Part shown: piece by piece, positions 16,328-61,121 of the stretch
Position numbering within the stretch: the first letter of the stretch is position 1
Layout: every line of letters begins with the position of its first letter
Origin: Clostridiales bacterium
Lineage (GTDB): Bacteria; Bacillota; Peptococcia; DRI-13; UBA5745
DNA: 64,000 nt
Assembly (NCBI GenBank): GCA_038562165.1
Contig: JBCFAO010000012.1
Location: forward strand, 19,850 to 83,849
Direction: 5' to 3'
Notes under the pieces: model-generated
The model's database searches: none
The model's input: the letters and a program-made list of their open reading frames with translations, nothing else
What the model was told of the DNA's origin: nothing
Made by a program: the position numbers and the translations under genes

Positions 16328-16348
16328 AATTAGTTAGACTATCTAATT
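16328..16348. promoter_or_regulatory. 21-bp palindrome upstream of fabT (candidate FabT operator)
   Basis: AATTAGtTAGaCTAtCTAATT, 18 of 21 positions self-complementary, 13 nt upstream of the fabT start. Confidence 0.4.
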
Positions 16349-16394
16349 ATATAGCGGTGGAGGAAAATGTCAATAGGAATATTGTAAACATTGC

Positions 16395-16612
16395 TGACTG
16401 CACAAAAATGCAGGTTTGTAACCTGGCGCGCCCTCAGATGAGCAAAATTGCAGGTTTGTATCTGCTTAAAAATGTTGAAAGACGGGTTTTTCGCTGTATT
16501 TAGGGCCAGAGGCGAAATGGAACCACTAAACTTAAAGGAATGATACGCTACAAACTTGAAATTTTGCTCAAAATGGTTCCGCTATCACTGACAAACCTGC
16601 AAGGTTTGCACA
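16395..16612. repeat. Family A modular inverted-repeat element, copy 1
   Basis: Core CAAAAWTGCAGGTTTGT at 16403 and 16443 (+). Inverted cores ACAAACYTG.A..TTTG at 16550 and 16591. 40-41 bp module spacing. Confidence 0.75.
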
Positions 16613-16837
16613 AAGTTGACTCGCAACAGACCGACTACACCGTCCAGCCATCAAAAAAGAAGGCTGCCCCAAAATGAAATGGTCCCCATGTCAAGGACAA
16701 TTTTAAAAAGAGGCCTATAAAAATCTCTGTAGAACTGATTAAATGGGTTTTACGGAGGAGATATGCAAGCAAATGCTGGCAGCAATATCAACTTCGATAG
16801 AACTGCCAGCATTTAATATATCCGCATATCTATTAGT

Positions 16838-17044
16838 ATGATGAACGCTATTGTAAAAGGATTTCCCATGGCAAAGCAAAACGACAAAAAGGAATACGAA
16901 CAATTAGAGGACTTTTTCGAGCAGCTCCGCAGTGATTATTGGTCGGTAAGGGGCACTCTGGATGAAGCGAACAAAAAAATAGAGTTCTTGGAATCACTCT
17001 GCCGTATCTATGGTATCTCTATTCCAGAAGAAATGCCGTTCTGA
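16838..17044 (+). CDS. Small hypothetical ORF whose stop codon is supplied by the IS terminus (probably truncated)
   Basis: 68 aa, no recognisable family. Its TGA (17042-17044) is the first three bases of the putative IS inverted repeat TGATCT. Confidence 0.3.
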   Translation: MMNAIVKGFPMAKQNDKKEYEQLEDFFEQLRSDYWSVRGTLDEANKKIEFLESLCRIYGISIPEEMPF

Positions 17045-17045
17045 T

Positions 17046-18017
17046 CTATACATGGATAGGATAATTTCCAGTCCGTAGATATTCATCGTACTGGTTCGGC
17101 GACAATTTGGCTAAATCCCACTGATAACGATCATTGTTGTAGTAATCCATATAGTCTTCAATAATGATCTTCAATTCTTCGAATGTATTGCAGCCTTCCA
17201 AATGGATTTCATCTTTCATATGACCAAAGAAGGACTCCTGCGGTGCGTTGTCCCAGCAATTTCCTCGCCTTGACATAGACTGACGTAATTCGTTGTCCTT
17301 GAGCAGGGCCTGAAAGGATATGCTGGTGTAATGGCAGCCCTGATCGGAGTGGATGATGGTTTCCTTACTCAAAGAAATTCCATGCTTTTGTATCAGGAGA
17401 CTGACCGTTTCCAGTACAAAGTCCACTTCTAAAGAATCGCTTACCGCATATGCCAACACCTGCTTGGTGCAGGCATCGAAAATCGTGGAAAGATACGCCT
17501 TACGGCTGCTTTGGTAGAACAGGTACGTAATATCTGTCAGAAGTATGGCTCTTGAGCCGTGTTCCTCAAACTCACGGTTAACAAGGTTCTCTGCTACATT
17601 GCTGGTTTTTAAGGCTTTTGCCATACGACGGTATGGATTCGCTTTTCGTATCGGACAGCAAAGATTGAATTTTTTCATTAGCCGGCTGATTTTCTTCTGG
17701 TTCATTCGCATGCCCATATGTAACAGCCGCATGTAAATTCCACGTCGTCCTTTATCATATCCGCGGAACTGATATGCCTCCAGAATCAACTCAAAATCTG
17801 CCTTGTCCCGTAAAGCTTTATCCCTACGGATGGACTGAGAATTCAGCCAGTTGTAGTATCCGCTTCTGGAAACGCCTGCATTTTCACACAACCAGCTTAT
17901 ATTAAGCTCGTTATTGTCCCGCGATGTTATTTCTCGGATGAGTTTGAATTTTTCTTCTGGTGAGGCTTCTGTTTTTCTTTCCTTTCCGTCTGTCTGTTTA
18001 AAAATTCGATTTTTTTT
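17046..18017 (-). CDS. IS3-family transposase OrfB (DDE/rve), expressed as an OrfAB fusion by -1 frameshift
   Basis: HSDQGCHYTS DDE-region motif. I translated the -1 frame by hand: it is open from the stop at 18024-18026 to 17046 with no ATG, consistent with frameshift expression. Confidence 0.85.
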   Translation of the reverse strand, partial: KKNRIFKQTDGKERKTEASPEEKFKLIREITSRDNNELNISWLCENAGVSRSGYYNWLNSQSIRRDKALRDKADFELILEAYQFRGYDKGRRGIYMRLLHMGMRMNQKKISRLMKKFNLCCPIRKANPYRRMAKALKTSNVAENLVNREFEEHGSRAILLTDITYLFYQSSRKAYLSTIFDACTKQVLAYAVSDSLEVDFVLETVSLLIQKHGISLSKETIIHSDQGCHYTSISFQALLKDNELRQSMSRRGNCWDNAPQESFFGHMKDEIHLEGCNTFEELKIIIEDYMDYYNNDRYQWDLAKLSPNQYDEYLRTGNYPIHV

Positions 18018-18415
18018 AGAAATTCATTCTCCTGCTTTAGATATTTGACTTGATGCGCCAAACGAGCCATCCGCTCTTTATCGGAAAGCTCCCTAACAGA
18101 AGGCCGTCCGGAATTTTCTCCCCTTAAATCTCTAAAATCGTCGCTGCGCACTTCGTATTTATACACGTTTCCAACAAAACGGTCAATACGTTTTTTGCCT
18201 AATACTCTTGGATCAAATCCCATTTCCCTAAGGATTACAGAAGGTGGGTTGCCCTGACGATACTTTTCAGTAAATACCGCCTTAAAGTCATCTGTGTAAG
18301 TTAGCGCTTTATTGCTGACTTTTTTAACATATGGATTTTTTTGCAGTTCTTCTATCTGATCATCTGTAAAATAGTTCCTTCCCATATTACAATACCCTTT
18401 CTGCAATGCTAACAA
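17927..18415 (-). CDS. IS3-family transposase OrfA (HTH / leucine-zipper)
   Basis: 162 aa, basic, ends shortly after the slippery run. Typical IS3 OrfA size. Confidence 0.8.
   Translation of the reverse strand: MLALQKGYCNMGRNYFTDDQIEELQKNPYVKKVSNKALTYTDDFKAVFTEKYRQGNPPSVILREMGFDPRVLGKKRIDRFVGNVYKYEVRSDDFRDLRGENSGRPSVRELSDKERMARLAHQVKYLKQENEFLKKIEFLNRQTERKEKQKPHQKKNSNSSEK
18010..18017 (-). other. Programmed -1 ribosomal frameshift site (A AAA AAA)
   Basis: A8 run (T8 on the + strand) in phase cta-AAA-AAA-atc in orfA. The orfB frame opens exactly here. Confidence 0.75.
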
Positions 18416-18574
18416 AAGGATAACAAAAAAAGACCCTGTAAAACAGAGTCAGTTGAAAGATCAGCGAGAATATCCCCCTTTTCTAACTGTCTATTTTACA
18501 GGGACCATTTTAAAATGGGACGGCCTCTTTTCGATTGCCGTACTATCTCACGTCAAGATATATGCCGGTGAAAC

Positions 18575-29930: not shown

Positions 29931-29960
29931 AGATGATCCCCCTCTCAGTGATCGATCGAT

Positions 29961-29989
29961 AATATCTTATGAAAAGATACCGTGGTCAA
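29961..29989 (-). promoter_or_regulatory. Candidate sigma-70 promoter for the transporter gene
   Basis: Minus strand TTGACC-17 nt-GATATT, about 30 nt upstream of the ATG region. Confidence 0.4.
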
Positions 29990-30028
29990 ACTGCAAAAAC
30001 CATCTATTGCCCCTGCGTACATTGCCGG

Positions 30029-30210
30029 ACATCTGCGCCCCAAGTTCTTTTCGGATAGCAGATTGAGTCCGAAGGCCATCTGCGCCCTGATATCTTCGGA
30101 TAGCAGATTGAGTCCGAAGGCCATCTGCGCCCTGATATCTTCGGATAGCAGATTGAGTCCGAAGGCCATCTGCGCCCTGATATCTTCGGATAGCAGATTG
30201 AGTCCGAAGG
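30029..30210. repeat. Tandem array, 45 bp x4 (three perfect copies), each unit carrying a hairpin
   Basis: Unit CCATCTGCGCCCTGATATCTTCGGATAGCAGATTGAGTCCGAAGG at 30076, 30121 and 30166. Diverged first copy at 30029-30075. Inverted repeat CTTCGGA-N12-TCCGAAG in each unit. Confidence 0.9.
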
Positions 30211-30386
30211 ACACTTTTGTTTTCAACGTACGCAGAGCTCTGTAACACCCCCTTCTTTAGGGTTTTCCTGATTGCTCTATCACCGGATTCCGCCGGCCCA
30301 AGGTCCTTTGCTTTAAGCATTGCACCGAACCTTGAGCCGGCTAAGCCATAGGCAATACGATAGGGATTCCAACAGGCCTAATCGTA

Positions 30387-36654: not shown

Positions 36655-36727
36655 TAGTGCTCTGTAGCCCCTTGAAGTTTGCACCTGCTTGCGCATCTGT
36701 GACAACTTTTAGGAGTCACAAAGCATC
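36655..36727. repeat. Family B GTGAC-hairpin element, two inverted arms meeting at TGCGCA
   Basis: TAGTGCTCTGTAGCCCCTTGAAGTTTGCACCTGCTTGCGCA / TGCGCATCTGTGACAACTTTTAGGAGTCACAAAGCATC. Confidence 0.7.
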
Positions 36728-39833: not shown

Positions 39834-41405
39834 TTATTCAATGCCAAATTCTTTGATTTTTCGCCAGAGGGTGATGGTGCTGATACCCAGCAGGTCGGCG
39901 GCTTCTTTTTTAATGCCGCCGGCATGATGCAAGGCGTTTTTGATGGCTGCAATCTCCGCATGCTGGATCTGGTCCTTTAAATTGAAAGATTTGCCCGTTG
40001 GGCCCCTGTGGCCCTGACTCAAGTTCAGCAAATAAGGGGGCAGGCTTGAACTCAGCAACCGGCTTTCGTTGACGCTGGTCATATTCATAGCCCGTTCCAC
40101 GCAGCTTTTCAACTCCCGCACATTGCCGGGCCAGTGGTGGCTCATTAAAATGTCGTAAAATCTGTCTTCGGCGGAAAAGACGAATTTTCCCAACAGCCGG
40201 TTAAATTCCGCAATAAAAGTTTTAACCAGCAGGGGAATATCCTCCTTGCGCTCCCGCAAAGGGGGGATGCGGATCTCGATGACGTTGATGCGGTAGTAGA
40301 GGTCCTCCCGGAAACGGCCTTCTTTGACAGCCTGAAGCAGGTCGCTATGGGTGGAGGAAATAATGCGGACGTCCAGCTTAATCGGCGTGAACTCCCCGAT
40401 GCGCATTACCTCTTTTTCCTGAATGACCCGCAGCAGTTTTGTCTGCAGGTCCGGCGGCATTTCACTGATTTCGTCAAGAAAAATCGTACCCGTATTGGCC
40501 TGCTCGAAGGCGCCGCTGCTGCCTTCTTTTTTGGCACCGGTAAAAGCGCCGCCGGAATAGCCGAATAAATAGCTTTCGATGATGCTGGCCGGTATGGCGC
40601 CGCAGTTGATGGCGACGAAAGGCTTATCCCGCCGGTCGCTTTCGTTATGGATAGCCTGGGCAAAGAGCTCTTTACCGGTGCCCGTTTCCCCATTGAGCAA
40701 AATGGAGGAGGCCCGGGAGGCCGTAAGGCACAAGTGCTTGGCATAAGTGATTTTTTCGCTTTCGCCTACAATATCCTTTAAATTGTAGCGGGCGGTCTGA
40801 AACTTTTTAACTTCCTCAAATAATTTTTTCTCATGGTGGACGGTGAGCTCGTTATTGAAGCCCAGACCGTATTCTTTAGTAATAGGAATGCGGATAGCCA
40901 TGGCCCCGTGAACGGAGGTGGATTCGCCGAAGGTGGGGGTTTGCTCCTCCATGGCTTTGCGGGCCAGCTTGCTGACCTTGCCGATTTGCTTTTCAATAAC
41001 CTTGCCAGCGGCGTCTACCGTATTGAGCCGTAAGCCGTTTTTATCGAAAATAACGGCTTCGCCGCCTACGAGGCGGGCAATAAAGGGCAGGGCCTGATCC
41101 AAAGATTTGACCAAGGCTTGATCCCTGGCGGTTTTGGCGGTGTTGCTGGCGGCAATCACGTAGTCGCCGAAGGGAATGGCCCAGGTTTGGGCGTCATTGG
41201 CGATTTGAGAGAAACCGATCTTGATCTGGCCGCTTTCACCGGCTTCCCGGGCCAGGTCGTAAACCATGCCCCGCATTTCCGTCAACTCCGTGCCGGAGGA
41301 ATCGTAAGTCCTGATCCGGATGCCGGCGGTGTCGGTGATTGTGGAATAGCCTTCGCAAATTTGGGCGATGGATTTTAAGGCATCTTCAAATTGGGCAGCT
41401 TCCAT
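39834..41405 (-). CDS. Sigma-54-dependent transcriptional activator (bEBP) with an uncharacterised N-terminal sensor domain
   Basis: 523 aa. GETGTGKELFAQAIH Walker A, GGAFTGA loop, C-terminal Fis-type HTH. Confidence 0.88.
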   Translation of the reverse strand: MEAAQFEDALKSIAQICEGYSTITDTAGIRIRTYDSSGTELTEMRGMVYDLAREAGESGQIKIGFSQIANDAQTWAIPFGDYVIAASNTAKTARDQALVKSLDQALPFIARLVGGEAVIFDKNGLRLNTVDAAGKVIEKQIGKVSKLARKAMEEQTPTFGESTSVHGAMAIRIPITKEYGLGFNNELTVHHEKKLFEEVKKFQTARYNLKDIVGESEKITYAKHLCLTASRASSILLNGETGTGKELFAQAIHNESDRRDKPFVAINCGAIPASIIESYLFGYSGGAFTGAKKEGSSGAFEQANTGTIFLDEISEMPPDLQTKLLRVIQEKEVMRIGEFTPIKLDVRIISSTHSDLLQAVKEGRFREDLYYRINVIEIRIPPLRERKEDIPLLVKTFIAEFNRLLGKFVFSAEDRFYDILMSHHWPGNVRELKSCVERAMNMTSVNESRLLSSSLPPYLLNLSQGHRGPTGKSFNLKDQIQHAEIAAIKNALHHAGGIKKEAADLLGISTITLWRKIKEFGIE

Positions 41406-41503
41406 AGGCGTTTCCTTTCTTATCCCGATAGCGGTTTTTTATCAGGAATCGGGATTAAGGGTTGATTATAGCGGTTATTGATGTAGAATGAACAATAGAG
41501 CCT

Positions 41504-41593
41504 GAATTCGAGAAGCTTGAATTCGGGAGGCCGGAATCCGAAAAGCTTGAATCCAAGAAACTGGAATCCGAGAGGCCGGCATTCAAAAAGGGA
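41504..41593. repeat. Tandem array, 15 bp x6 (GAATYCGAGARGCYK), ending 8 nt before the downstream ATG
   Basis: gaattcgagaagctt / gaattcgggaggccg / gaatccgaaaagctt / gaatccaagaaactg / gaatccgagaggccg / gcattcaaaaaggga. Confidence 0.85.
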
Positions 41594-41601
41594 GATGTAT
41601 C

Positions 41602-42417
41602 ATGACCGATTTTCTAAAAAGAACGGCCAGAGTAGCCTTCGGCCTGTTTTTATGCGCTATAGGTTCTTATCTTAGTATTCAAGCTAACGTGGGGTTGGCG
41701 CCCTGGGGAGCCTTCAATATCGGCGTGGCCGCCGTCACGGGCCTGACCTACGGCAATGTTTCTATTATTACTGCTTTGCTGGTGATTCTGGTGGATGTGG
41801 CCCTCAAGGAGAAAATCGGCATGGGCACATTAATGGATTCCATTTTGATGGGCGTATTTGTGGATCTGATGATCCGGCTGAATCCGCTGCCCCAATGCAC
41901 AAATTACATTTTGGGAATTTTTGTGCTGCTGCTGGGGCAGGTAGCCATCTGCCTGGGAACCTACTATTATATAAGTGCGGGTTTGAGCTGCGGTCCCCGG
42001 GATTCGCTGATGGTGGCTTTGGACAAGCGCCTTTCCCGGGTGCCCATCGGAGCGGTACGGGGCCTTATCGAGACTACGGCTCTTCTGGTGGGCTGGCTTT
42101 TGGGGGCGAAAGTTGGTCTGGGCACAATTATAGCGGTTTTGGGAATCAGTTCTATTTTGCAATTGACGTTCAGCATGTTCCGGTTCGATCCGAAAACCGT
42201 GGATCATGAGGATATCCTTACCTCTTTTCGCAAGGTGAAGGCAGACTTGGCCAAGAAAGTGGGCGGAGGAAACGAAGGGAAAGCGGAAGGGTTTATTGTC
42301 CTAGAAAGAGCCGGAGCTGAGCCGCTGCCTGCCGACGGCTTGCCGTCTCTACCGCCAGGCATTGCACCAAAGGGTGCCTCTTTACCCGGTCAAGGAAAGG
42401 ATCGGATCTTTCCTTGA
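41602..42417 (+). CDS. YczE/YitT-like integral membrane protein
   Basis: 271 aa. N-terminal 200 aa polytopic. The hydrophilic tail is encoded antisense to the 3' end of the next gene. Confidence 0.5.
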   Translation: MTDFLKRTARVAFGLFLCAIGSYLSIQANVGLAPWGAFNIGVAAVTGLTYGNVSIITALLVILVDVALKEKIGMGTLMDSILMGVFVDLMIRLNPLPQCTNYILGIFVLLLGQVAICLGTYYYISAGLSCGPRDSLMVALDKRLSRVPIGAVRGLIETTALLVGWLLGAKVGLGTIIAVLGISSILQLTFSMFRFDPKTVDHEDILTSFRKVKADLAKKVGGGNEGKAEGFIVLERAGAEPLPADGLPSLPPGIAPKGASLPGQGKDRIFP

Positions 42418-43024: not shown

Positions 43025-43140
43025 AGCATACCTCCTTTTGCCTTATCTCTATTGTAATGGATAACAGGAGTCAAATCAATTAATCAATTTATCGGGCCGC
43101 AGTGGAAAAATTAGGGACAGAAGCGGTTTCTGTGCAGACC

Positions 43141-43430
43141 TTCAACTTTGCAGCTTTACATCTCATGCCATAGCGTGTTGTTCAAAATTGCAGGTTTGTA
43201 TTGCCTGCTTATAGCATTTTGCTCAAAATTGCAAGTTTGTAGGACGTATTTTGGCCTGGAAATAGGGTTTTCACCCATTTATGGGCCGAATTTGTTCCAA
43301 AGCAGGGATTTAGAGGTATACAAACCTGCATTTTTGCTCAGTTAGTCAAAGCGAACGATAACAAACTTGCAATTTTGAGCAGTTAGCTATGTCACACCCT
43401 AACAAACCTGCAATTTTGAGCAGTTAGCCT
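43141..43430. repeat. Family A modular inverted-repeat element, copy 2
   Basis: Cores at 43183 and 43224 (+, 41-bp spacing; degenerate one at 43141). Inverted cores at 43320, 43361 and 43402 (41-bp spacing). Confidence 0.8.
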
Positions 43431-43569
43431 TTGCTAGCCCCGCCCCTACCGTGCCACCGCCGCTGGCCTGTGCCGGTCGCCCCTACCGTGCCGCCACCGC
43501 CGCCGGTTCCCCTTTCGTCCGCTGCCGGCTTACTGCCCTGCCATTCTGGATTTAAAGGAGCATATATTA

Positions 43570-44214
43570 ATGGAAGAAAAAAATATCGGAGCCGTAGTTA
43601 TGGCTTCCGGCTTTTCCCGGCGTTTGGGAACCAACAAGCTGCTGATGCCTTTGGATGAAAAGACCAGAGTAATCGACAGGGTGCTGGATAGGATAAAAGA
43701 AATGGATTATGCTGCCGTGGCGGTGGTATCCCAGTACGAGGAGGTTTTGGAGCTGGCCTGCCGCCAAGGATTTAAGGCGGTGGCTAACGCCGAGGCCTTG
43801 GAAGGCAAAAGCAGCTCCATCCGGCTGGGTGTGGCCACTTTGGAAGCCATGGTGGACAGCGGCGAAAGCCCTCCCTTGGACGGCATGATTTTTTTCACCG
43901 GCGATCAGGCTCTGCTGACCAAGGAGCTGCTGGCAGCCCTAAAAGCGGCTTTTCAGGAGGAGCCCGATAAGATTGTATTCCCCGCCTATGATGGCAAGCC
44001 CGGCTCGCCGGCAATTTTCCCCATGGATATGGCTGGAAGGCTCAAGGAGCTCCAGGGCGAGGAGGGCGGCATGAGGGCTGCCTTTGAGCAAAAGGAACGG
44101 ATTCATTATCTGCCGGCGGGAGCTTCCTGGCAGGGCTGGGATTTGGATATCCTTGAGGATTGGGAAAAGATCAAACTTTTTTATTGTAATCTGAGCCGGG
44201 AACCCTTAAAATAG
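43570..44214 (+). CDS. MocA-like nucleotidyltransferase (molybdenum cofactor cytidylyltransferase family)
   Basis: 214 aa. VVMASGFSRRLGTNKLL N-terminal motif. Confidence 0.7.
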   Translation: MEEKNIGAVVMASGFSRRLGTNKLLMPLDEKTRVIDRVLDRIKEMDYAAVAVVSQYEEVLELACRQGFKAVANAEALEGKSSSIRLGVATLEAMVDSGESPPLDGMIFFTGDQALLTKELLAALKAAFQEEPDKIVFPAYDGKPGSPAIFPMDMAGRLKELQGEEGGMRAAFEQKERIHYLPAGASWQGWDLDILEDWEKIKLFYCNLSREPLK

Positions 44215-46074: not shown

Positions 46075-46238
46075 CTAGTGCTTTGTGACCACTAGAAGTT
46101 GTCACAGATGCGCAGAATATTTTCTCAAGTGCAAGGCGGAGGAGCGAGGCGTAGCGGTGTCTACGGTGAGCGACGACAACGCCGCAATTGAGAAAATAGG
46201 CAAGCAGATGTAAGCTTTTAGTGGTTACAGAGTACTAG
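46075..46238. repeat. Family B element with nested central hairpin (164 bp)
   Basis: Arms 46075-46114 and 46200-46238 are inverted. Inner inverted pair ATTTTCTCAAGTGC (46119) / GCAATTGAGAAAAT (46184). Starts 2 nt after the typA stop. Confidence 0.75.
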
Positions 46239-50155: not shown

Positions 50156-50755
50156 TTGAAACTGATTGTGGGATTGGGAAATCCCGGACTTACTTATGCC
50201 CATACCAGGCATAATGTAGGCTTTATGATGGTGGACCGGCTGGCAGAACTTTGGGATGGGGCCTGCGAAAAAAAGCAGGGCCAGGCTTTGGTGCGCACGG
50301 CCAATGCGGCAGGCGAACGCTTATTGCTGGTGAAGCCTCAGACCTTTATGAATCTCAGCGGCGATTCCCTTTGGGAATTGGTGAATTTTTATAAAGACGG
50401 CATCGAGGATCTCATCGTTATCCATGATGATCTGGATCTGCCTTTAGGTAAACTGCGGTTCAAAAGCGGCGGCGGCACCGGAGGCCACCGGGGCCTAAAG
50501 TCCATTACCCAGCGTCTGGGCACCGACAAATACGACCGGTTAAAAATCGGCGTAGACCGGCCGCCGGATTTTATGACCACGGAGGCTTATGTTTTGCAGG
50601 CTTTTTCCATAGAGGAAAAGGGGCTGCTGGACAAGGTGCTTGATAAAGGGGCCGAAGGACTTCGCTATTGGCTGACGGAAGGCTGCGTGCCGGCCATGAA
50701 TAAGTTTAACTCCACTGACCTGCGGCCGTTGCCGCCGGCAGAAAATAATGAATAA
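50156..50755 (+). CDS. pth: Peptidyl-tRNA hydrolase
   Basis: KLIVGLGNPG, HNVGF. TTG start at 50156, 8 nt after GGAGG (the ORF track starts at 50129). Confidence 0.9.
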   Translation: MKLIVGLGNPGLTYAHTRHNVGFMMVDRLAELWDGACEKKQGQALVRTANAAGERLLLVKPQTFMNLSGDSLWELVNFYKDGIEDLIVIHDDLDLPLGKLRFKSGGGTGGHRGLKSITQRLGTDKYDRLKIGVDRPPDFMTTEAYVLQAFSIEEKGLLDKVLDKGAEGLRYWLTEGCVPAMNKFNSTDLRPLPPAENNE

Positions 50756-50846
50756 AGGACATGTGGAACGAGTTCCACCGAAAAATGAATAAAGGATAGG
50801 TGGAACGAGTTCCACCGAAAATGGATGAAGGATAGGTGGAACTTGG
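50741..50846. repeat. Tandem duplication (39, 37 and about 30 bp) spanning the pth stop and the mfd start
   Basis: GAAAA(T)AATGAATAAAGGAyAkGTGGAACGAGTTCCACC twice, then a truncated third copy containing the mfd ATG. Palindrome GTGGAACGAGTTCCAC at 50763 and 50800. Confidence 0.8.
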
Positions 50847-53800
50847 ATACGGGGATATCGCTGCTGCAAGCTTTTTTAAAGAAACAATCCGAATATAGTT
50901 TTGTGATACAGCAGGCCGGCGAAAAAAGCCATAATTTGATTCATGGCTTATCCGGCAGCCAAAGAGGGTTTTTGACGGCGGCCATAGCCGAAAACCAGGG
51001 CAAGGACATCCTGTTTATGGCGGAAAATACTCAAAAGGCCAGGGAAATTATTGATGATTTCAGCTTTTGGCTGCCGGACTATCAGGTTCTTTATTTTCCG
51101 GCCCTGGACATCATTCCTTTTGAGGTGCTGGCCCAAAGCAAAGAGACCCGCTGGAAACGCCTGGAGGTAATTCAGGCTCTTTTGTATGCCCAGGGACCGG
51201 TGGCTGTGGTAACCACGGTGGAGGCTCTGCGCAAGACTATGCTGCCCAAGGAGCAGTTGCGGTCTCATTTCCGGGTTTTGCAAATAGGGCAAACCCTGGA
51301 TGTGATGGAATTGGTGGCCTGGCTGGTGGAGCGGGGTTATGAACGGGTGGAAAGGGTTGAGGAAAAGGGCCAGATTGCTCTCCGGGGTGGTATATTGGAC
51401 GTGTTTTGCCCCACCGCTTTAAAACCCTGGCGCTTGGAATTCTTTGATGAAGAGCTGGATTCCATTCGCAGCTTCGCTCCGGAATCCCAGCGCTCTATCG
51501 ATAAAGTCCAGGATATTCTTCTTGCCCCCGCCAGCGAATGTATTTTTTCAGCGGAGCAAAAAGCCAGCATTATTGCAGGGCTTCAGGGAGAGGGAAAAAT
51601 CCCGGCTAAAAGGCGCAAGAAAAAAACGGCTGCAGAGACCGGCGGCGAAGAAGGCAAAGAGGGAGTCCAGGAGGGCAGCAGAGCGGAACAGCTGGTGGAA
51701 TTGCTGAGAGAAGGCTGCTTTTTTCCCGGCCATGAGCAGTTGCTGCCTTATGCCGGCGTTGCACCCTGCCTGATCAGCGATTATTTTGGCCGGCCGCTGC
51801 TGCCGGTGATGGCTGAGCCCTCACGCCAAAAAGAGGCCAGTCAGCTTTGGGAAAAAGAATACAGCGAGACCTGCCTTGATCTGCTGGAAAAAGGCCGTAT
51901 CTGCCCCGGGCAAATGCGGACTTACCTGTCCCTGGATGATCTGGTGCGGCAAACCGGCAGTAACGGGCTGCTGTTTTTGGCTTTGCTGCCTAAGCGGCCC
52001 AGCTGGTTTGAGGACATCAATACCCTGGGCCTGACGGCAAAGAGCGTTTCTTTATTTTTAAAAAAGGTACAGCTTTTAGCCGATGAACTGACGGAATGGC
52101 GGCGGCAGCAATACTGCATGATGATTCTGGCGGGCAGCAAAGAGCGGGGTCAAAGGCTGCAGGAAAGCCTGCGCAGCCTGGGTTTGGAAAGCAGCTGGAG
52201 CGACGGCAGCTTTACCCCCGCAGGCGGGGGCATCTTCATTTTGCCGGGTAAGATATCCGGCGGCTTTGACCTGCCCGGCCTTAAGCTGGCAGTAGTCTCG
52301 GAGCATGAACTGTTTTTTCAGCCCAAGAAGAAAGCAACGAAGAAAATGTTTCGGGAAGGCAAAAAACAGCTTTTCCTGGAAGATTTAAAACCCGGTGATT
52401 ATATTGTTCATATCAATTATGGCATCGGCCGTTATGAAGGCATTGAGAATATTACGGTAGACCAGGCCCAGCGGGATTACCTGGTCATCAGTTACAGTGG
52501 CTCCGACCGCCTTTATGTGCCTACGGACCAGGCGGAGCTGCTGCAAAAGTATACGGGTCAGGAAGGCAACCGGCCTAAATTATCGAAGCTGGGCGGCAGC
52601 GAATGGGTCCGTACTAAAGCCAAGGCCAGGAAGGCTGTAGATGATATGGCCGAAGAGCTGCTGGAGCTTTATGCTGCCCGGGAAGCCTTGCCGGGTACGG
52701 CCTTTGGCGAAGACACCCCTTGGCAGAAGGAGTTTGAGGAGGCTTTCCCCTTTGAGGAAACCCAGGATCAGTTGCGCTCCATCGAAGAAGTAAAACAGGA
52801 TATGGAAAGATCCCGGCCCATGGACCGGCTGCTCTGCGGCGACGTAGGCTATGGCAAAACCGAGGTAGCCATGCGGGCTGCTTTCAAAGCCGCCGCTTCC
52901 GGCTGGCAGGTGGCTGTATTGGTGCCCACCACGGTTTTGGCCCAGCAGCATTATAATACCTTTCGGGAACGCTTTGAGGGCTTTGCTCTGGAGGTAGCGG
53001 TGCTCAACCGGTTCCGCCGTCCCGCCGAGCAAAAAGATACCCTGAAGCGGCTGTCTCAGGGCCGGGTGGATATTTTGATCGGTACCCACCGGATTTTGTC
53101 CCAGGACGTGGAGTTTAAAAATCTGGGACTCTTGATTGTCGATGAAGAACAGCGTTTCGGCGTGGGCCATAAAGAAAAAATAAAAAAACTCAAGCAATCG
53201 GTGGATGTGCTGACCCTGACGGCCACACCCATTCCCCGGACTCTCCATATGGCTATGTCGGGCCTGCGGGATTTGAGCGTTATTGAGACGGCGCCGGAGG
53301 ACCGTTACCCTGTGCAGACCTATGTGGTAGAATATTCGGCGCCTTTGATTCGGGAGGCCATCCGCCGGGAACTGGGCCGGGGAGGCCAGGTTTATTATGT
53401 GCATAACCGGATTGAAGATATCGACAGGGTCCGGGAGGGTATTGCCGCTATCGTGCCGGAGGCCAGGGTGGCTTCGGCTCATGGCCGGATGACGGAAGCA
53501 GCCCTGGAAGGGATCATGTTTGATTTCATGGAAGGGGATATCGATGTCCTGGTTTGCACCACTATTATTGAATCAGGCTTGGATATCAGCAATGCCAACA
53601 CGGTGATCATCAATAATGCGGACCGCCTGGGCCTGGCCCAGCTTTACCAGATCAGAGGCCGGGTGGGCCGTTCCAACCGGGTGGCTTACGCGTATCTTAC
53701 CTACACGAAAGACAAAACTATTTCCGAGGTGGCCGAAAAAAGGATGTCGGCTATCCGGGAGTTTACGGAGCTGGGAGCAGGCTACAAAATTGCCATGCGG

Positions 53801-54427
53801 GATCTGGAAATCCGGGGAGCCGGCAACCTTTTGGGAGCGGAGCAGCACGGCCAAATCGCCGCTGTAGGCTTCGATCTGTATTGCCGGATGCTGGAAGACG
53901 CCATGAAAAAGAAGCGCCGGGAGAAGCTGCTGGGCCATGCCTTGCCGGAAAGTCCCGAGGAAGAACTGGAAACCGTGGCTATCGATCTCCAGGTCAAAGC
54001 CTATATTCCCATGGAATATATGGAGGACGAAAGCGCCAAAATCGACTTTTACCAGCGGATCAATAACGCCAGAAACAATGAAGATATTGACGAACTGCGG
54101 GAAGAAATGGTAGACCGTTTCGGCGATTTGCCGGATCCTCTGGAGAACCTGCTGGCTATCGGTTTCATTAAAGCCGTGGCCAAGGAGGCTAAAATTGCCG
54201 GCGTTATCCAGGAGCCAAAGCAGATTAAAATCATGATGGCCCAGGATCACGGTTTGAAAGGACCGGAGCTGATGGAGCTGGTGAAAAGCTTTAACCGCCG
54301 CATTTCGTTCAATGCCACGGATAAGCTGGAAATTATTATTCAATTGGCTAAGCTGGAAGAGCAGAATGTCATCGGCTTTTTAACGAAAGTAGTACAGGCG
54401 CTGCTGGCCCTTGTGAAAAAGTCCTGA
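50825..54427 (+). CDS. mfd: Transcription-repair coupling factor
   Basis: 1200 aa. GDVGYGKTEVA Walker A, VDEEQRFG box. Confidence 0.93.
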   Translation: MKDRWNLDTGISLLQAFLKKQSEYSFVIQQAGEKSHNLIHGLSGSQRGFLTAAIAENQGKDILFMAENTQKAREIIDDFSFWLPDYQVLYFPALDIIPFEVLAQSKETRWKRLEVIQALLYAQGPVAVVTTVEALRKTMLPKEQLRSHFRVLQIGQTLDVMELVAWLVERGYERVERVEEKGQIALRGGILDVFCPTALKPWRLEFFDEELDSIRSFAPESQRSIDKVQDILLAPASECIFSAEQKASIIAGLQGEGKIPAKRRKKKTAAETGGEEGKEGVQEGSRAEQLVELLREGCFFPGHEQLLPYAGVAPCLISDYFGRPLLPVMAEPSRQKEASQLWEKEYSETCLDLLEKGRICPGQMRTYLSLDDLVRQTGSNGLLFLALLPKRPSWFEDINTLGLTAKSVSLFLKKVQLLADELTEWRRQQYCMMILAGSKERGQRLQESLRSLGLESSWSDGSFTPAGGGIFILPGKISGGFDLPGLKLAVVSEHELFFQPKKKATKKMFREGKKQLFLEDLKPGDYIVHINYGIGRYEGIENITVDQAQRDYLVISYSGSDRLYVPTDQAELLQKYTGQEGNRPKLSKLGGSEWVRTKAKARKAVDDMAEELLELYAAREALPGTAFGEDTPWQKEFEEAFPFEETQDQLRSIEEVKQDMERSRPMDRLLCGDVGYGKTEVAMRAAFKAAASGWQVAVLVPTTVLAQQHYNTFRERFEGFALEVAVLNRFRRPAEQKDTLKRLSQGRVDILIGTHRILSQDVEFKNLGLLIVDEEQRFGVGHKEKIKKLKQSVDVLTLTATPIPRTLHMAMSGLRDLSVIETAPEDRYPVQTYVVEYSAPLIREAIRRELGRGGQVYYVHNRIEDIDRVREGIAAIVPEARVASAHGRMTEAALEGIMFDFMEGDIDVLVCTTIIESGLDISNANTVIINNADRLGLAQLYQIRGRVGRSNRVAYAYLTYTKDKTISEVAEKRMSAIREFTELGAGYKIAMRDLEIRGAGNLLGAEQHGQIAAVGFDLYCRMLEDAMKKKRREKLLGHALPESPEEELETVAIDLQVKAYIPMEYMEDESAKIDFYQRINNARNNEDIDELREEMVDRFGDLPDPLENLLAIGFIKAVAKEAKIAGVIQEPKQIKIMMAQDHGLKGPELMELVKSFNRRISFNATDKLEIIIQLAKLEEQNVIGFLTKVVQALLALVKKS

Positions 54428-57904: not shown

Positions 57905-58190
57905 AACCGGCGCCGCTGCTCAAAATTGCAGGTTTGTCGCTGTTCAGCAAGGCTAACTGTGCAAACTTGCAAGTTTGTCGCCGTTCGCCGTATCTAACTG
58001 AGCAAAATTGCAGGTTTGTCCACCCAAAATAAGCCTTAAATTTAAAATTATGAGGGGAAAATTATATTTATACCATAAACTTGAAACTTTAAACAAAAAA
58101 TAGCATGAATGAGGGATACAAACTTGCAATTTTGCACAAATGGGCCTAAGGCCAGGTACAAACTTGCAATTTTGCACATGAGCCTCAGCC
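57905..58190. repeat. Family A modular inverted-repeat element, copy 3
   Basis: Cores at 57921, 57962 and 58003 (+, exact 41-bp spacing). Inverted cores at 58118 and 58158 (a degenerate one near 58075). AT-rich centre. Confidence 0.8.
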
Positions 58191-59486: not shown

Positions 59487-59674
59487 GCCTCCCCCTTATA
59501 TATCGGAGATACCTTTGCAGCATCCCGGCAATAATCTTAAATAAAACTCTGGTTTAAGCCCAATTATACGTCATTTTCGGCGGCTGTACAATTCAGCTCT
59601 CTAGGGAACCAACTTTTGTATACTTATATGTATACGCGGAAGTATACGCCAAAGGCCTTTTATCAGGAAAAAAC

Positions 59675-59737
59675 CATTGTTATAATAAACATTGTTATAA
59701 TAAACATTGTTATAATAAACATTGTTATAAATAACAT
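59675..59737. repeat. Tandem array, 15 bp x4 (CATTGTTATAATAAA), each unit an extended -10 box
   Basis: Units at 59675, 59690, 59705 and 59720 (the last is TATAAA). TGTTATAAT occurs three times. Ends about 30 nt before the gdhA RBS. Confidence 0.85.
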
Positions 59738-59768: not shown

Positions 59769-61121
59769 ATGAGCGGCGTATTAAAAAATGAATATTTGAA
59801 GAAGATCTTTGATGAAGTTATGGAGCGGGACCCCCATGAACCGGAATTTCAGCAGGCCGTCTTTGAGGTGCTGGAATCTCTGGAGCCGGTGGTAGAAAAA
59901 CGGCCGGATATTGTGAAGGCTGATGTTATCCGCCGCCTGGTGGAGCCGGAACGGCTGATCATCTTCCGGGTGCCCTGGATGGACGATGCCGGCAATATGC
60001 GGGTGAACCGGGGCTTCCGTGTACAATATAACAGCGCTATCGGGCCTTACAAAGGCGGTCTGCGTTTTCATCCTTCCGTTAATGCCTCGATTATTAAATT
60101 CCTGGGCTTTGAGCAATGCTTTAAGAACTGCCTGACCACCATGCCCATGGGCGGCGGCAAAGGCGGTTCCGACTTTGATCCCAAGGGTAAATCCGATAAT
60201 GAAGTTATGCGGTTTTGTCAAAGCTTTATGACGGAGCTGTACCGCCATGTGGGCCAGTTCACCGATGGGCCTGCCGGCGATATCGGCGTAGGCGCCAGGG
60301 AGATCGGCTATCTCTTTGGCCAGCACAAACGGATTACCAACGAATTTAACGGCACCATGAGCGGCAAGGGTATTCCCTACGGCGGTTCTTTAGGCCGCAA
60401 GTCCGCTACCGGTTACGGCTTATGCTACTTTACGGCCAATGCCCTGTCTGCTAAGAGTGACAGCTTTGCCGGCAAAACCGTGGTGGTTTCCGGCTCCGGC
60501 AACGTAGCCATTTATGCCTGTGAGAAAGCCCAGGAGATGGGAGCTAGGGTAGTGGCCATGAGCGACTCCTGCGGGTACATCTACGACGAGAAGGGCCTGG
60601 ATATTGAAATCATCAAAACCCTCAAAGAAGTAAAGCGCTGCCGGCTTTCCGAATATGCCCAGGCAGTTCCCGGTTCCGTCTACACAGAGGGCTGCTGCAA
60701 CATTTGGAGCGTTCCTTGCGATATCGCCCTGCCTTGCGCTACCCAAAATGAGATTGATATCAAAGCAGCCCAGCTTCTGGTAAAAAATGGCTGCAAATGC
60801 GTGGCGGAAGGATCCAATATGTCTTCCACTGCGGAAGCTGCTTACTACTTTATAGAGTCCGGTATTTTATATGCACCCTCCAAGGCAGCCAATGCCGGCG
60901 GCGTCGCCGTATCCTGGATGGAAATGAGCCAAAACTCCACCCGCCTGCCTTTGACGGAGGAGGAGATCGATGCCAAGCTCCGGAAGATCATGAAGGATAT
61001 TTATGAGAATGTATCCTCTGCCGCCAAAGAGTTTGGCCTGGAAGGCAATTTCGTAGCCGGCGCCAATATCGCCAGCTTCCTGAAAATCGCCGAGGCCATG
61101 ATGGCTCAGGGTTGCTGCTAA
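59769..61121 (+). CDS. gdhA: NADP-specific glutamate dehydrogenase
   Basis: 450 aa. PMGGGKGGSDFDPKG catalytic-Lys motif. Confidence 0.93.
   Translation: MSGVLKNEYLKKIFDEVMERDPHEPEFQQAVFEVLESLEPVVEKRPDIVKADVIRRLVEPERLIIFRVPWMDDAGNMRVNRGFRVQYNSAIGPYKGGLRFHPSVNASIIKFLGFEQCFKNCLTTMPMGGGKGGSDFDPKGKSDNEVMRFCQSFMTELYRHVGQFTDGPAGDIGVGAREIGYLFGQHKRITNEFNGTMSGKGIPYGGSLGRKSATGYGLCYFTANALSAKSDSFAGKTVVVSGSGNVAIYACEKAQEMGARVVAMSDSCGYIYDEKGLDIEIIKTLKEVKRCRLSEYAQAVPGSVYTEGCCNIWSVPCDIALPCATQNEIDIKAAQLLVKNGCKCVAEGSNMSSTAEAAYYFIESGILYAPSKAANAGGVAVSWMEMSQNSTRLPLTEEEIDAKLRKIMKDIYENVSSAAKEFGLEGNFVAGANIASFLKIAEAMMAQGCC

Follow-up and report, generated by a model that had tools for sequence, protein, structure and literature searches.

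In a 64,000-nucleotide stretch of the Clostridiales bacterium contig JBCFAO010000012.1 (positions 19,850 to 83,849 of the forward strand, hereafter the window), three intergenic elements are built from short near-palindromic sites that recur every 40-41 bp in two arms facing each other across a centre. These elements, termed family A, are a new variant among the bacterial interspersed mosaic elements (BIMEs) and are restricted to a small clade of uncultured Clostridia. The family is dispersed, its arrays end sharply, its cores and centre are conserved below the synonymous rate, its spacers turn over and its module number changes between orthologous loci. With a probability of about one half, family A represents an old and now largely immobile mosaic repeat of the BIME/BOX class, whose phased sites, as their sequence pattern suggests, bind a putative dimeric protein. 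There is good evidence that the sites are functional and none for current mobility.

The window contains 14 family A modules, which form the elements at 16399-16611, 43179-43427 and 57917-58178 (loci 1, 2 and 3; Table 1). In each element, two or three direct modules are followed by a centre of 79-98 nt and by two or three inverted modules; the period is 40-41 bp. The core CAAAATTGCAGGTTTGT matches the window 15 times with at most 3 mismatches, against 0.25 matches expected and a maximum of 2 in 100 shuffles; 14 modules rather than 15 are counted, since the match at 57961 on the minus strand is the palindromic shadow of the near-palindromic copy at 57962 on the plus strand. Tandem Repeats Finder called 41-bp arrays at 43320-43428 and 57921-58020, the inverted arms were also detected by a separate repeat search of the window, and an nhmmer profile trained solely on the modules of another genome recovered window modules at all three loci, with nothing scoring better than E = 1.6 in the rest of the window.

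The preliminary description of this DNA had placed three such loci in non-coding gaps; all three are real, with module positions in exact agreement, and all three gaps are non-coding. The exact 41-bp spacing that it proposed holds for most modules, the left arm of locus 1 and the right arm of locus 3 being spaced by 40 bp, and its centre of 75-100 bp can be made precise as 90, 79 and 98 nt at loci 1, 2 and 3. The flank CTAACTG, thought to be shared by the modules, belongs to one spacer type; locus 2 has it in its right arm and locus 3 in its left, and locus 1 lacks it. The motifs GGGTTTTyC and ATTTAkGGCC do recur in the centres of loci 1 and 2 (16484-16507 and 43265-43287), where they delimit a common motif of about 25 nt. 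At locus 2 the hairpin around this motif is formed by TTTGGCC (43250-43256) and GGCCGAA (43284-43290), and the 26-nt unit of the right arm reads ACAAACYTGCAWTTTTG-mKCAGTTAG. The centre of locus 3 appears, by eye, to carry a looser version of the motif on the opposite strand. At locus 1 the outer right core (16591-16607) is a degenerate copy with 3 mismatches, and the corresponding core of the orthologue in a related genome (L061; L numbers denote sequences other than the window) is intact.

The range of the family was established by scanning one genome per species with the exact core, which yielded at least 92 blocks that were read as 8-kb blocks. In the metagenome-assembled genome (MAG) of Clostridia bacterium R1-B15.2 (JAHDMJ01), at least 25 separate blocks of 8 kb, spread over many contigs, contain family A. 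The window and this MAG are close relatives, with 91-99.7 % identity, L061 being orthologous to locus 1 and L077 to locus 3. More distant relatives yielded no cores, and exact-core matches in unrelated taxa were taken as chance matches. Among 241 million metagenome records, the two-module pattern was found on 2 contigs only, both of which match MAG loci: the flank of L097 is 92 % identical to L046, while L098 is another copy of an element with a class B centre (see below). A blastn search of plasmid and phage collections with the element returned no match, and viral contigs gave 0 matches to the two-module pattern, one lone match to the single A core and none to the single core of the sister family B. 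The many copies in one MAG, together with the little found elsewhere, therefore indicate a dispersed family of narrow phylogenetic range. At locus 2, four independent short-read assemblies terminate within the element or next to it, as would be expected for a repeat. The preliminary description had considered that the element might instead be a conserved local region, without further copies and with the same sequence in relatives; orthologous regions do carry related sequence, but many further copies exist, and family A is no local oddity. Literature on the MAG accessions or on similar elements yielded nothing relevant.

The anatomy of the family was surveyed in 28 arrays comprising 122 modules. 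Each complete array consists of direct modules, a centre and inverted modules (26 convergent junctions and 1 doubtful divergent junction), and neighbouring modules on the same strand are spaced by 41 bp in 37 cases, by 40 bp in 24 and by 39 and 43 bp in one case each. The arms carry 1-4 modules, and the elements measure about 210-320 bp. The spacers sort into a few recurring types and confer a polarity on the elements, with type I spacers (consensus cgtcgttcgcataggctaactgag) in one arm and other types in the opposite arm; since its type I spacers lie in the left arm, locus 3 is opposite in polarity to locus 2. Several classes of centre can be distinguished, namely class A of about 79 nt (locus 2, L012, L046, L075 and others, with 80-85 % identity across the whole element), class B of about 150 nt and class C of about 98 nt (locus 3, L025 and L077), and further classes exist. 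By eye, the remaining centre classes contain sequence related to the 25-nt motif of loci 1 and 2.

A longer version of family A with the 150-nt class B centre, about 480-535 bp in length, is present in L007, L022, L052, L064 and L098 (MAG and metagenome); its loci are at most 93 % identical to each other and have conserved outer flanks, and an 18-bp tandem repeat, GGACAAAACCTGCAGAGG, adjoins one arm. The MAG also contains a sister family, B, which follows the convergent plan of family A and has GCACAAAAATCGAAGTTGTGTG as its core and a period of about 62 bp. It is accompanied by a motif X (GAGGGCACTGAAAAAGTC), and both occur beside family A elements, one B element being located between the arms of an A element in L031. 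The GGCTAACTG prefix is common to B modules and type I A modules, which suggests a relationship between the families. Neither family B nor motif X is present in the window. Three other explanations of the architecture were rejected. The elements are not invertible segments, as class A centres all keep one orientation relative to the type I arm, nor are they CRISPR arrays, as the spacers fall into a few recurring types. A coding role was dismissed because the 41-bp period is not a multiple of three; on inspection, the 17-codon open reading frame (ORF) in the locus 3 centre lacks a ribosome-binding site and is not conserved in L025, a paralogue.

The conserved unit of family A is a 21-nt site, TG[T/A]G-CAAAAWTGCARGTTTGT, in which TG[T/A]G stands 5' of the core; over the 122 modules, the T, G and final G of this prefix have frequencies of 0.89, 0.93 and 0.77. 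The core had been described as a near-palindrome around TGCA, and indeed 7 of the 8 position pairs of the 16-bp core CAAAATTGCAAGTTTG are symmetric around a central TGCA. Its only two variable positions, 6 and 11, constitute a symmetric pair of the palindrome. Symmetry combined with paired variable positions is the pattern expected of a site for a dimeric protein. Zero mismatches to CAAAAWTGCARGTTTGT are found in 89 of 117 cores, while whole paralogous elements are only 70-93 % identical. One period past the outermost cores, 50 of the 55 testable positions look random (10-16 mismatches), which indicates that the arrays end sharply and that decayed cores are almost absent. The spacing of 40-41 bp corresponds to 4.0 helical turns at 10.2 bp per turn, as in wrapped DNA, and to 3.8-3.9 turns at 10.5 bp per turn. 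The periods of both families are whole multiples of about 10.3 bp (41 = 4 x 10.25 and 62 = 6 x 10.33).

The comparison of locus 3 between the window and the MAG separates the parts of the element by their rate of change. The cores differ at 3 of 85 positions (3.5 %) and the centre at 5 of 98 (5 %), whereas the spacers differ at 21 of 71 (30 %), and fourfold degenerate sites of the two genes flanking the locus differ by 13.8 % and 19.5 %. Against these fourfold rates, the binomial P ranges from 0.0017 to 1.6e-5 for the cores and from 0.0049 to 4e-5 for the centre, while the spacers exceed the lower fourfold estimate (P 0.0004 at 13.8 % and 0.03 at 19.5 %). The cores and the centre, changing below the synonymous rate, are therefore constrained, while the arms turn over. 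Locus 1 is uninformative in this respect, since it is 99.4 % identical between the window and the MAG. Turnover is also seen in the left arm of locus 3, where the MAG has one module more than the window (4 against 3), and in the spacers, whose median identity is 0.83 within an arm and 0.39 between arms, some adjacent units being identical (L081 and L022). The earlier comparison with BOX-type modular elements is thus apt, given the variable module number at orthologous loci and the near-identity of adjacent modules, and the suggested protein-binding array, non-coding and modular, fits the pattern of conservation.

The positions of the elements are old. Close relatives carry an element at each of the three window sites, and sister species do so at those of loci 1 and 2, which places the occupancy of the latter two before the sister-species split. 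The locus 2 site of the sister species JAHDPO, identified by a mobA-like protein of 83 % identity, holds a diverged variant with cores ending in TTTAA. At the locus 1 site, JAHDLZ has a variant whose centre differs and whose cores have decayed, and JAHDPO retains only the outermost module, within whose spacer a 3-kb gene block joins.

These features suggest how family A may work. The 21-nt sites and the centre motif of about 25 nt would act as DNA sites rather than as RNA, and the sites would bind a sequence-specific dimeric protein, presumably of the helix-turn-helix (HTH) type. With a period of about four turns, the bound dimers would line up on nearly one face of each arm, and, since the arms face each other, the two rows of protein could pair with each other and loop or wrap the centre of 80-150 bp. 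The protein might be either a transposase acting in trans or a host protein. The family may have spread formerly as a non-autonomous element or by recombination, with copies that are now essentially fixed, and its arms would lengthen and shorten by unequal recombination or slippage between modules.

Several points weigh against the interpretation of family A as an old mosaic repeat with functional protein-binding sites. Protein binding is deduced from the pattern of the sequence, and the conservation of the cores is in part an ascertainment effect, as cores were found by similarity, although this is not the whole story, given the unselected TG-G flank and the bimodal distribution of mismatches. 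In relaxed B-DNA, four turns do not correspond exactly to 41 bp. The test for constraint comes from one orthologous locus, at which a mosaic recombination history is possible. Two sister genomes carry degenerate or TTTAA-ending variant cores at the same sites, and the perfect cores of the window could thus reflect recent homogenization rather than long-term selection. Moreover, a partner gene could lie elsewhere, the blocks read being of 8 kb and the comparison of genes covering 264 kb of the lineage.

The layout of family A resembles the ends of transposons with multiple transposase-binding sites, and a non-autonomous element of this kind (a miniature inverted-repeat transposable element), with ends as in Tn7, Mu, IS21 and Tn402 and a DDE transposase supplied in trans, is an unlikely alternative that nevertheless accounts for several observations. 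The inverted arms are composed of repeated 21-nt sites that start with TG, and spacer types differ from one arm of an element to the other, as between the left and right ends of a transposon. The copies are short, non-coding and dispersed (at least 25 MAG blocks and 3 in the 64-kb window) and have inverted terminal arrays; family B copies beside family A, including the one between A arms, resemble nested insertions, and rearrangement breakpoints are situated inside elements. No target-site duplication was detected, however, as the longest common flank word of 21 elements averaged 5.71 nt compared with 5.57 nt for mismatched flank pairs, in a test that would miss duplications of 2-4 bp or those eroded in old copies. 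Comparison of the three sites in relatives, which the preliminary description had proposed, revealed neither presence/absence polymorphism nor an empty site; no clean empty site was obtained for locus 3, downstream of whose radical SAM gene the gene order is not conserved, and the occupancy of loci 1 and 2 predates the sister-species split. Paralogues are at most 93 % and mostly 70-85 % identical, which argues against a recent burst. TG[T/A]G precedes modules generally instead of marking a distinct terminal copy, the flanks after the outermost modules differ and define no fixed terminus, and distinct 5'-TGT...ACA-3' termini with 5-bp target duplications were not seen in the family A copies examined. 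Tn7 and Mu ends, moreover, have irregularly spaced sites, in contrast to the strict period of 40-41 bp. When the ORFs in the 264 kb of the lineage were all compared with one another, no multi-copy gene was found, and the sole transposase identified there is an unrelated IS3-family enzyme encoded in the window (17046-18415), whose gene is also the only DDE gene in the window, with none of the TnsB or MuA type seen there. The proposed search for an autonomous, full-length element with the same ends has so far been negative in these 264 kb and in the plasmid, phage, viral and metagenome collections, and the first three of these collections contained no two-module or element match. What remains of the suggested Tn7- or Mu-like paired ends is therefore their layout. 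The IS3-family insertion sequence itself, located close to locus 1, was ruled out as the parent of family A: its terminal inverted repeats (AAATGGTCCC...) are unrelated to the core, its junctions carry a short AAAATG-like direct repeat, and it inserted separately and recently, the orthologous site of the MAG being empty (cccaaaatgggacgg). This clean insertion serves as a positive control for the detection of polymorphism.

The genomic context of the copies bears on the remaining alternatives. All are intergenic, and the 23 copies with both flanks known lie between convergent (10), tandem (9) or divergent (4) genes, their neighbours being unrelated housekeeping genes without a functional theme (for example those for chemotaxis receptors, UvrC, radical SAM enzymes, a DUF881 protein and a sigma-54 activator). 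That the arrays are local operators for a transcription factor governing the adjacent genes is very improbable, even though the 17-bp near-palindromic core is operator-like, locus 2 separates a divergent NTPase gene from a mobA-like/bipA pair, and at locus 1 the outermost core is followed, about 30 bp downstream, by the -35 hexamer of a perfect promoter. Locus 3 and 9 other copies are situated between convergent gene ends, where there is no promoter; the contexts of loci 1-3 differ, which excludes a common promoter-operator role, and the adjacent genes have no common function. In addition, whole elements, including their centres, are paralogous with 70-93 % identity, which points to copying rather than to independent evolution of sites. 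Sites of sigma-54 enhancer type were likewise rejected, as inspection revealed no TGGCAC-N5-TTGC promoter near the arrays, and nearby activator genes appear coincidental. It is somewhat more conceivable, although still improbable, that the elements are architectural or barrier sites of the host, that is, genome-wide platforms between genes for a nucleoid-associated or roadblock protein, which would act for instance as a two-way barrier to transcription or replication or as a supercoiling insulator. The conservation of cores and centre below the synonymous rate, the old and stable positions and the phasing are consistent with such a role, and the convergent symmetry would act alike from both sides; 10 of the 23 copies are between convergent genes, against about one quarter expected, a weak enrichment based on rough gene calls. 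Selfish repeats, however, are likewise best tolerated between convergent genes, the family is found in a very narrow lineage whereas core chromosome functions are usually wider, the cores at these sites are decayed or variant in sister species, and the protein is putative. The least probable explanation, and one that can hardly be sustained, is a structured RNA or small-RNA gene in which the centre would be a hairpin and the inverted arms a long stem or signals for processing or termination. The class A centre does contain a conserved imperfect hairpin, and on one strand G-U wobbles, disrupted on the other strand, make up 5 of the 6 changed cells in four variable stem pairs, a pattern that is not significant among the seven sequences compared. 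Covariation is negligible, with a positive covariation term and 1-2 pairs at most altered in both partners. Compared with shuffled sequences, the whole element folds much more stably (z = -8.6), which follows trivially from the inversion of the cores. In contrast, the inner cores of opposing arms differ in 21 of 25 elements with variant positions unmatched, which also argues against a cruciform, and the arm spacers are of different types and remain unpaired. The suggested Rfam search (Rfam 15) gave no match at gathering thresholds for the whole window or at E up to 5 for 43030-43575, the centres contain no convincing promoter or terminator beyond chance-level matches, and the orientation relative to genes is inconsistent, two class A copies being antisense to both neighbours.

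The interpretation of family A as an old mosaic repeat is best judged against known systems; the family works most like BIME, BOX and the Neisseria intergenic mosaic elements (NIMEs), its layout resembles that of multi-site transposon ends, and it is a member of none of these. Like the BIMEs and their repetitive extragenic palindromic (REP) units in E. coli and other enterobacteria, which are thought to be protein-binding platforms (for gyrase, IHF and Pol I), it is dispersed, intergenic and non-coding, combines a near-palindromic unit with alternative linkers, varies in unit number from locus to locus and is often found at gene 3' ends. REP units, however, are GC-rich hairpin palindromes of 20-40 bp in alternating orientation, whereas the family A core is AT-rich (CAAA-N8-TTTG with a central TGCA), has no room for a loop and, on inspection, forms no stable hairpin; its units are direct within an arm (62 same-strand neighbour pairs) with a strict period of 40-41 bp, its arms converge on a unique centre, and no RAYT-type (IS200/IS605-like) partner gene is present in the 264 kb of the lineage. 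BOX elements of S. pneumoniae (boxA-boxB(n)-boxC) are also modular, a few hundred bp long, dispersed and intergenic, with a module of about 45 bp in variable copy number and no known transposase; compared by layout, their variable module is in the middle between unique ends, while family A has the plan arm(n)-unique centre-inverted arm(m). NIMEs, composed of dRS3 and RS units, similarly alternate a near-palindromic repeat of about 20 bp with a few spacer families in variable arrays, but they have neither a convergent two-arm plan nor a fixed helical period. The dRS3 repeat is a target for phage or IS110-type recombinases, and no recombinase link of this kind was found for family A. The TnsB sites of Tn7, the L1-3/R1-3 sites of Mu and the ends of IS21 share with family A sites of about 20 nt that begin with TG, are direct within an end and inverted between ends, and make up two non-identical ends; family A differs in its regular period, lack of a fixed terminus and old copies, with no duplication, empty site or partner found. 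Plasmid and phage iterons and centromere-like sites (the 17-bp iterons of RK2, parC of R1 and pac of P1) are phased arrays of 17-22 bp sites, sometimes in two blocks around a functional centre, which one protein binds cooperatively. Such arrays occur once per replicon, unlike the dozens of chromosomal copies of family A, which has no similarity to plasmids or phages.

Table 1. Coordinates of the family A elements and of associated or neighbouring features (positions refer to the window unless an L number is given)
Feature	Position	Strand	Description
Locus 1 left arm	16399..16459	+	Two direct modules, cores 16403-16419 and 16443-16459, spacing 40 bp
Locus 1 centre	16460..16549	.	90 nt; common centre motif GGGTTTTTCGCTGTATTTAGGGCC at 16484-16507
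Locus 1 right arm	16550..16611	-	Two inverted modules, cores 16550-16566 and 16591-16607, spacing 41 bp
Locus 2 left arm	43179..43240	+	Cores 43183-43199 and 43224-43240, spacing 41 bp, non-type-I spacers
Locus 2 centre	43241..43319	.	Class A, 79 nt; motif GGGTTTTCACCCATTTATGGGCC at 43265-43287 within imperfect hairpin
Locus 2 right arm	43320..43427	-	Three inverted 26-nt units at 43320, 43361 and 43402; type I spacers; period 41
Locus 3 left arm	57917..58019	+	Three direct modules, cores 57921, 57962 and 58003; type I spacers; period 41
Locus 3 centre	58020..58117	.	Class C, 98 nt, AT-rich; 5 differences from MAG orthologue
Locus 3 right arm	58118..58178	-	Two inverted modules ACAAACTTGCAATTTTG-CACA at 58118 and 58158, spacing 40
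IS3-family insertion sequence	16677-18511		70 bp from locus 1 right arm
IS3 orfA	17927-18415		HTH_Tnp_2 domain
IS3 orfB	17046-17891		rve domain
C-rich 37-bp tandem repeat	43441..43500	+	2 copies; abuts locus 2 right arm
C-rich tandem repeats	L068 4312-4480; L077 2545-2750; L074 2890-3000; L046 480-600; L099 9780-9960		
Family B locations	L031 4671-4890; L045 5398-5657; L055 2480-2560; L095 1-225		

Rearranged sequences and other repeats accompany the family. The same A arm is joined to different upstream sequence in L097 (1300-1325) and L046 (648-740), and again in L095 (1-226) and the window (43179-43402), with motif X or a family B element replacing the other A arm at the L097 and L095 joins. 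Such joins reflect either genuine rearrangements that broke within the element or chimeras formed at the repeat during assembly. Short C-rich tandem repeats with a period of about 12-37 bp (e.g. CGCCCCTACCGTGCCRCCRCCGC) abut an arm in approximately one third of the family A copies and vary in length between strains, and a C-rich repeat region is also found upstream of the mobA-like gene in the sister species; the one beside locus 2 may or may not belong to the element. Near locus 1, a perfect consensus promoter of the sigma-A type, TTGACA-16-TATAAT, is present on the minus strand at 16346-16373 and was read as the promoter of a marR-fabH fatty-acid synthesis operon; the palindrome TTAGATAGTCTAACTAA 3' of this promoter looks like a MarR-type operator.

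Further repeats occur elsewhere in the window. A perfect 45-bp tandem repeat at 30050-30210 (3.6 copies, 100 % identity) overlaps candidate minus-strand ORFs at 29945-30226 and 29967-30320. A 36-bp sequence with a GTGAC...GTCAC hairpin is present twice in inverted orientation (36690-36725 and 46079-46114, 92 % identity), each copy directly after a gene end, and may represent a small family of REP-like or terminator repeats. Five copies of a 15-bp unit (AGCTTGAATCCGAGA) at 41499-41590, which may form a binding-site array, fill a gap between a sigma-54 activator gene (39834-41405, minus strand) and a DUF6198 gene (starting at 41602, plus strand). Intergenic tandem repeats are also found at 50747-50842, just upstream of mfd (50825-54427), with 2.6 copies of a 37-bp unit, and at 59669-59737, upstream of a gene starting at 59769, with 3.7 perfect copies of CATTGTTATAATAAA.

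Most knowledge of the REP/BIME, BOX, NIME and Correia elements comes from a small number of intensively studied pathogens, and the workings of most of them are still debated. The build of family A is unusually legible by comparison: its 21-nt site resembles an operator, its period is a strict one of about four turns, and its arms face each other around a conserved centre. Further arrays should be recognizable by the pattern TGWGCAAAAWTGCARGTTTGT. The measurable constraint on site and centre makes the family a tractable case for asking which protein maintains such repeats and whether the repeats serve the host. In this lineage, family A also breaks short-read assemblies and marks rearrangement breakpoints and strain-variable tandem arrays. 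A bolder and rather doubtful possibility is that the elements are more than selfish relics and form genome-wide, phased, convergent platforms for one dimeric DNA-binding protein, possibly a domesticated transposase or repressor, whose facing filaments would loop the centre, families A and B having co-evolved with paralogous proteins. If this were true, family A would represent a previously undescribed nucleoprotein element of bacterial chromosomes, for example a two-way barrier or a topological insulator between genes.

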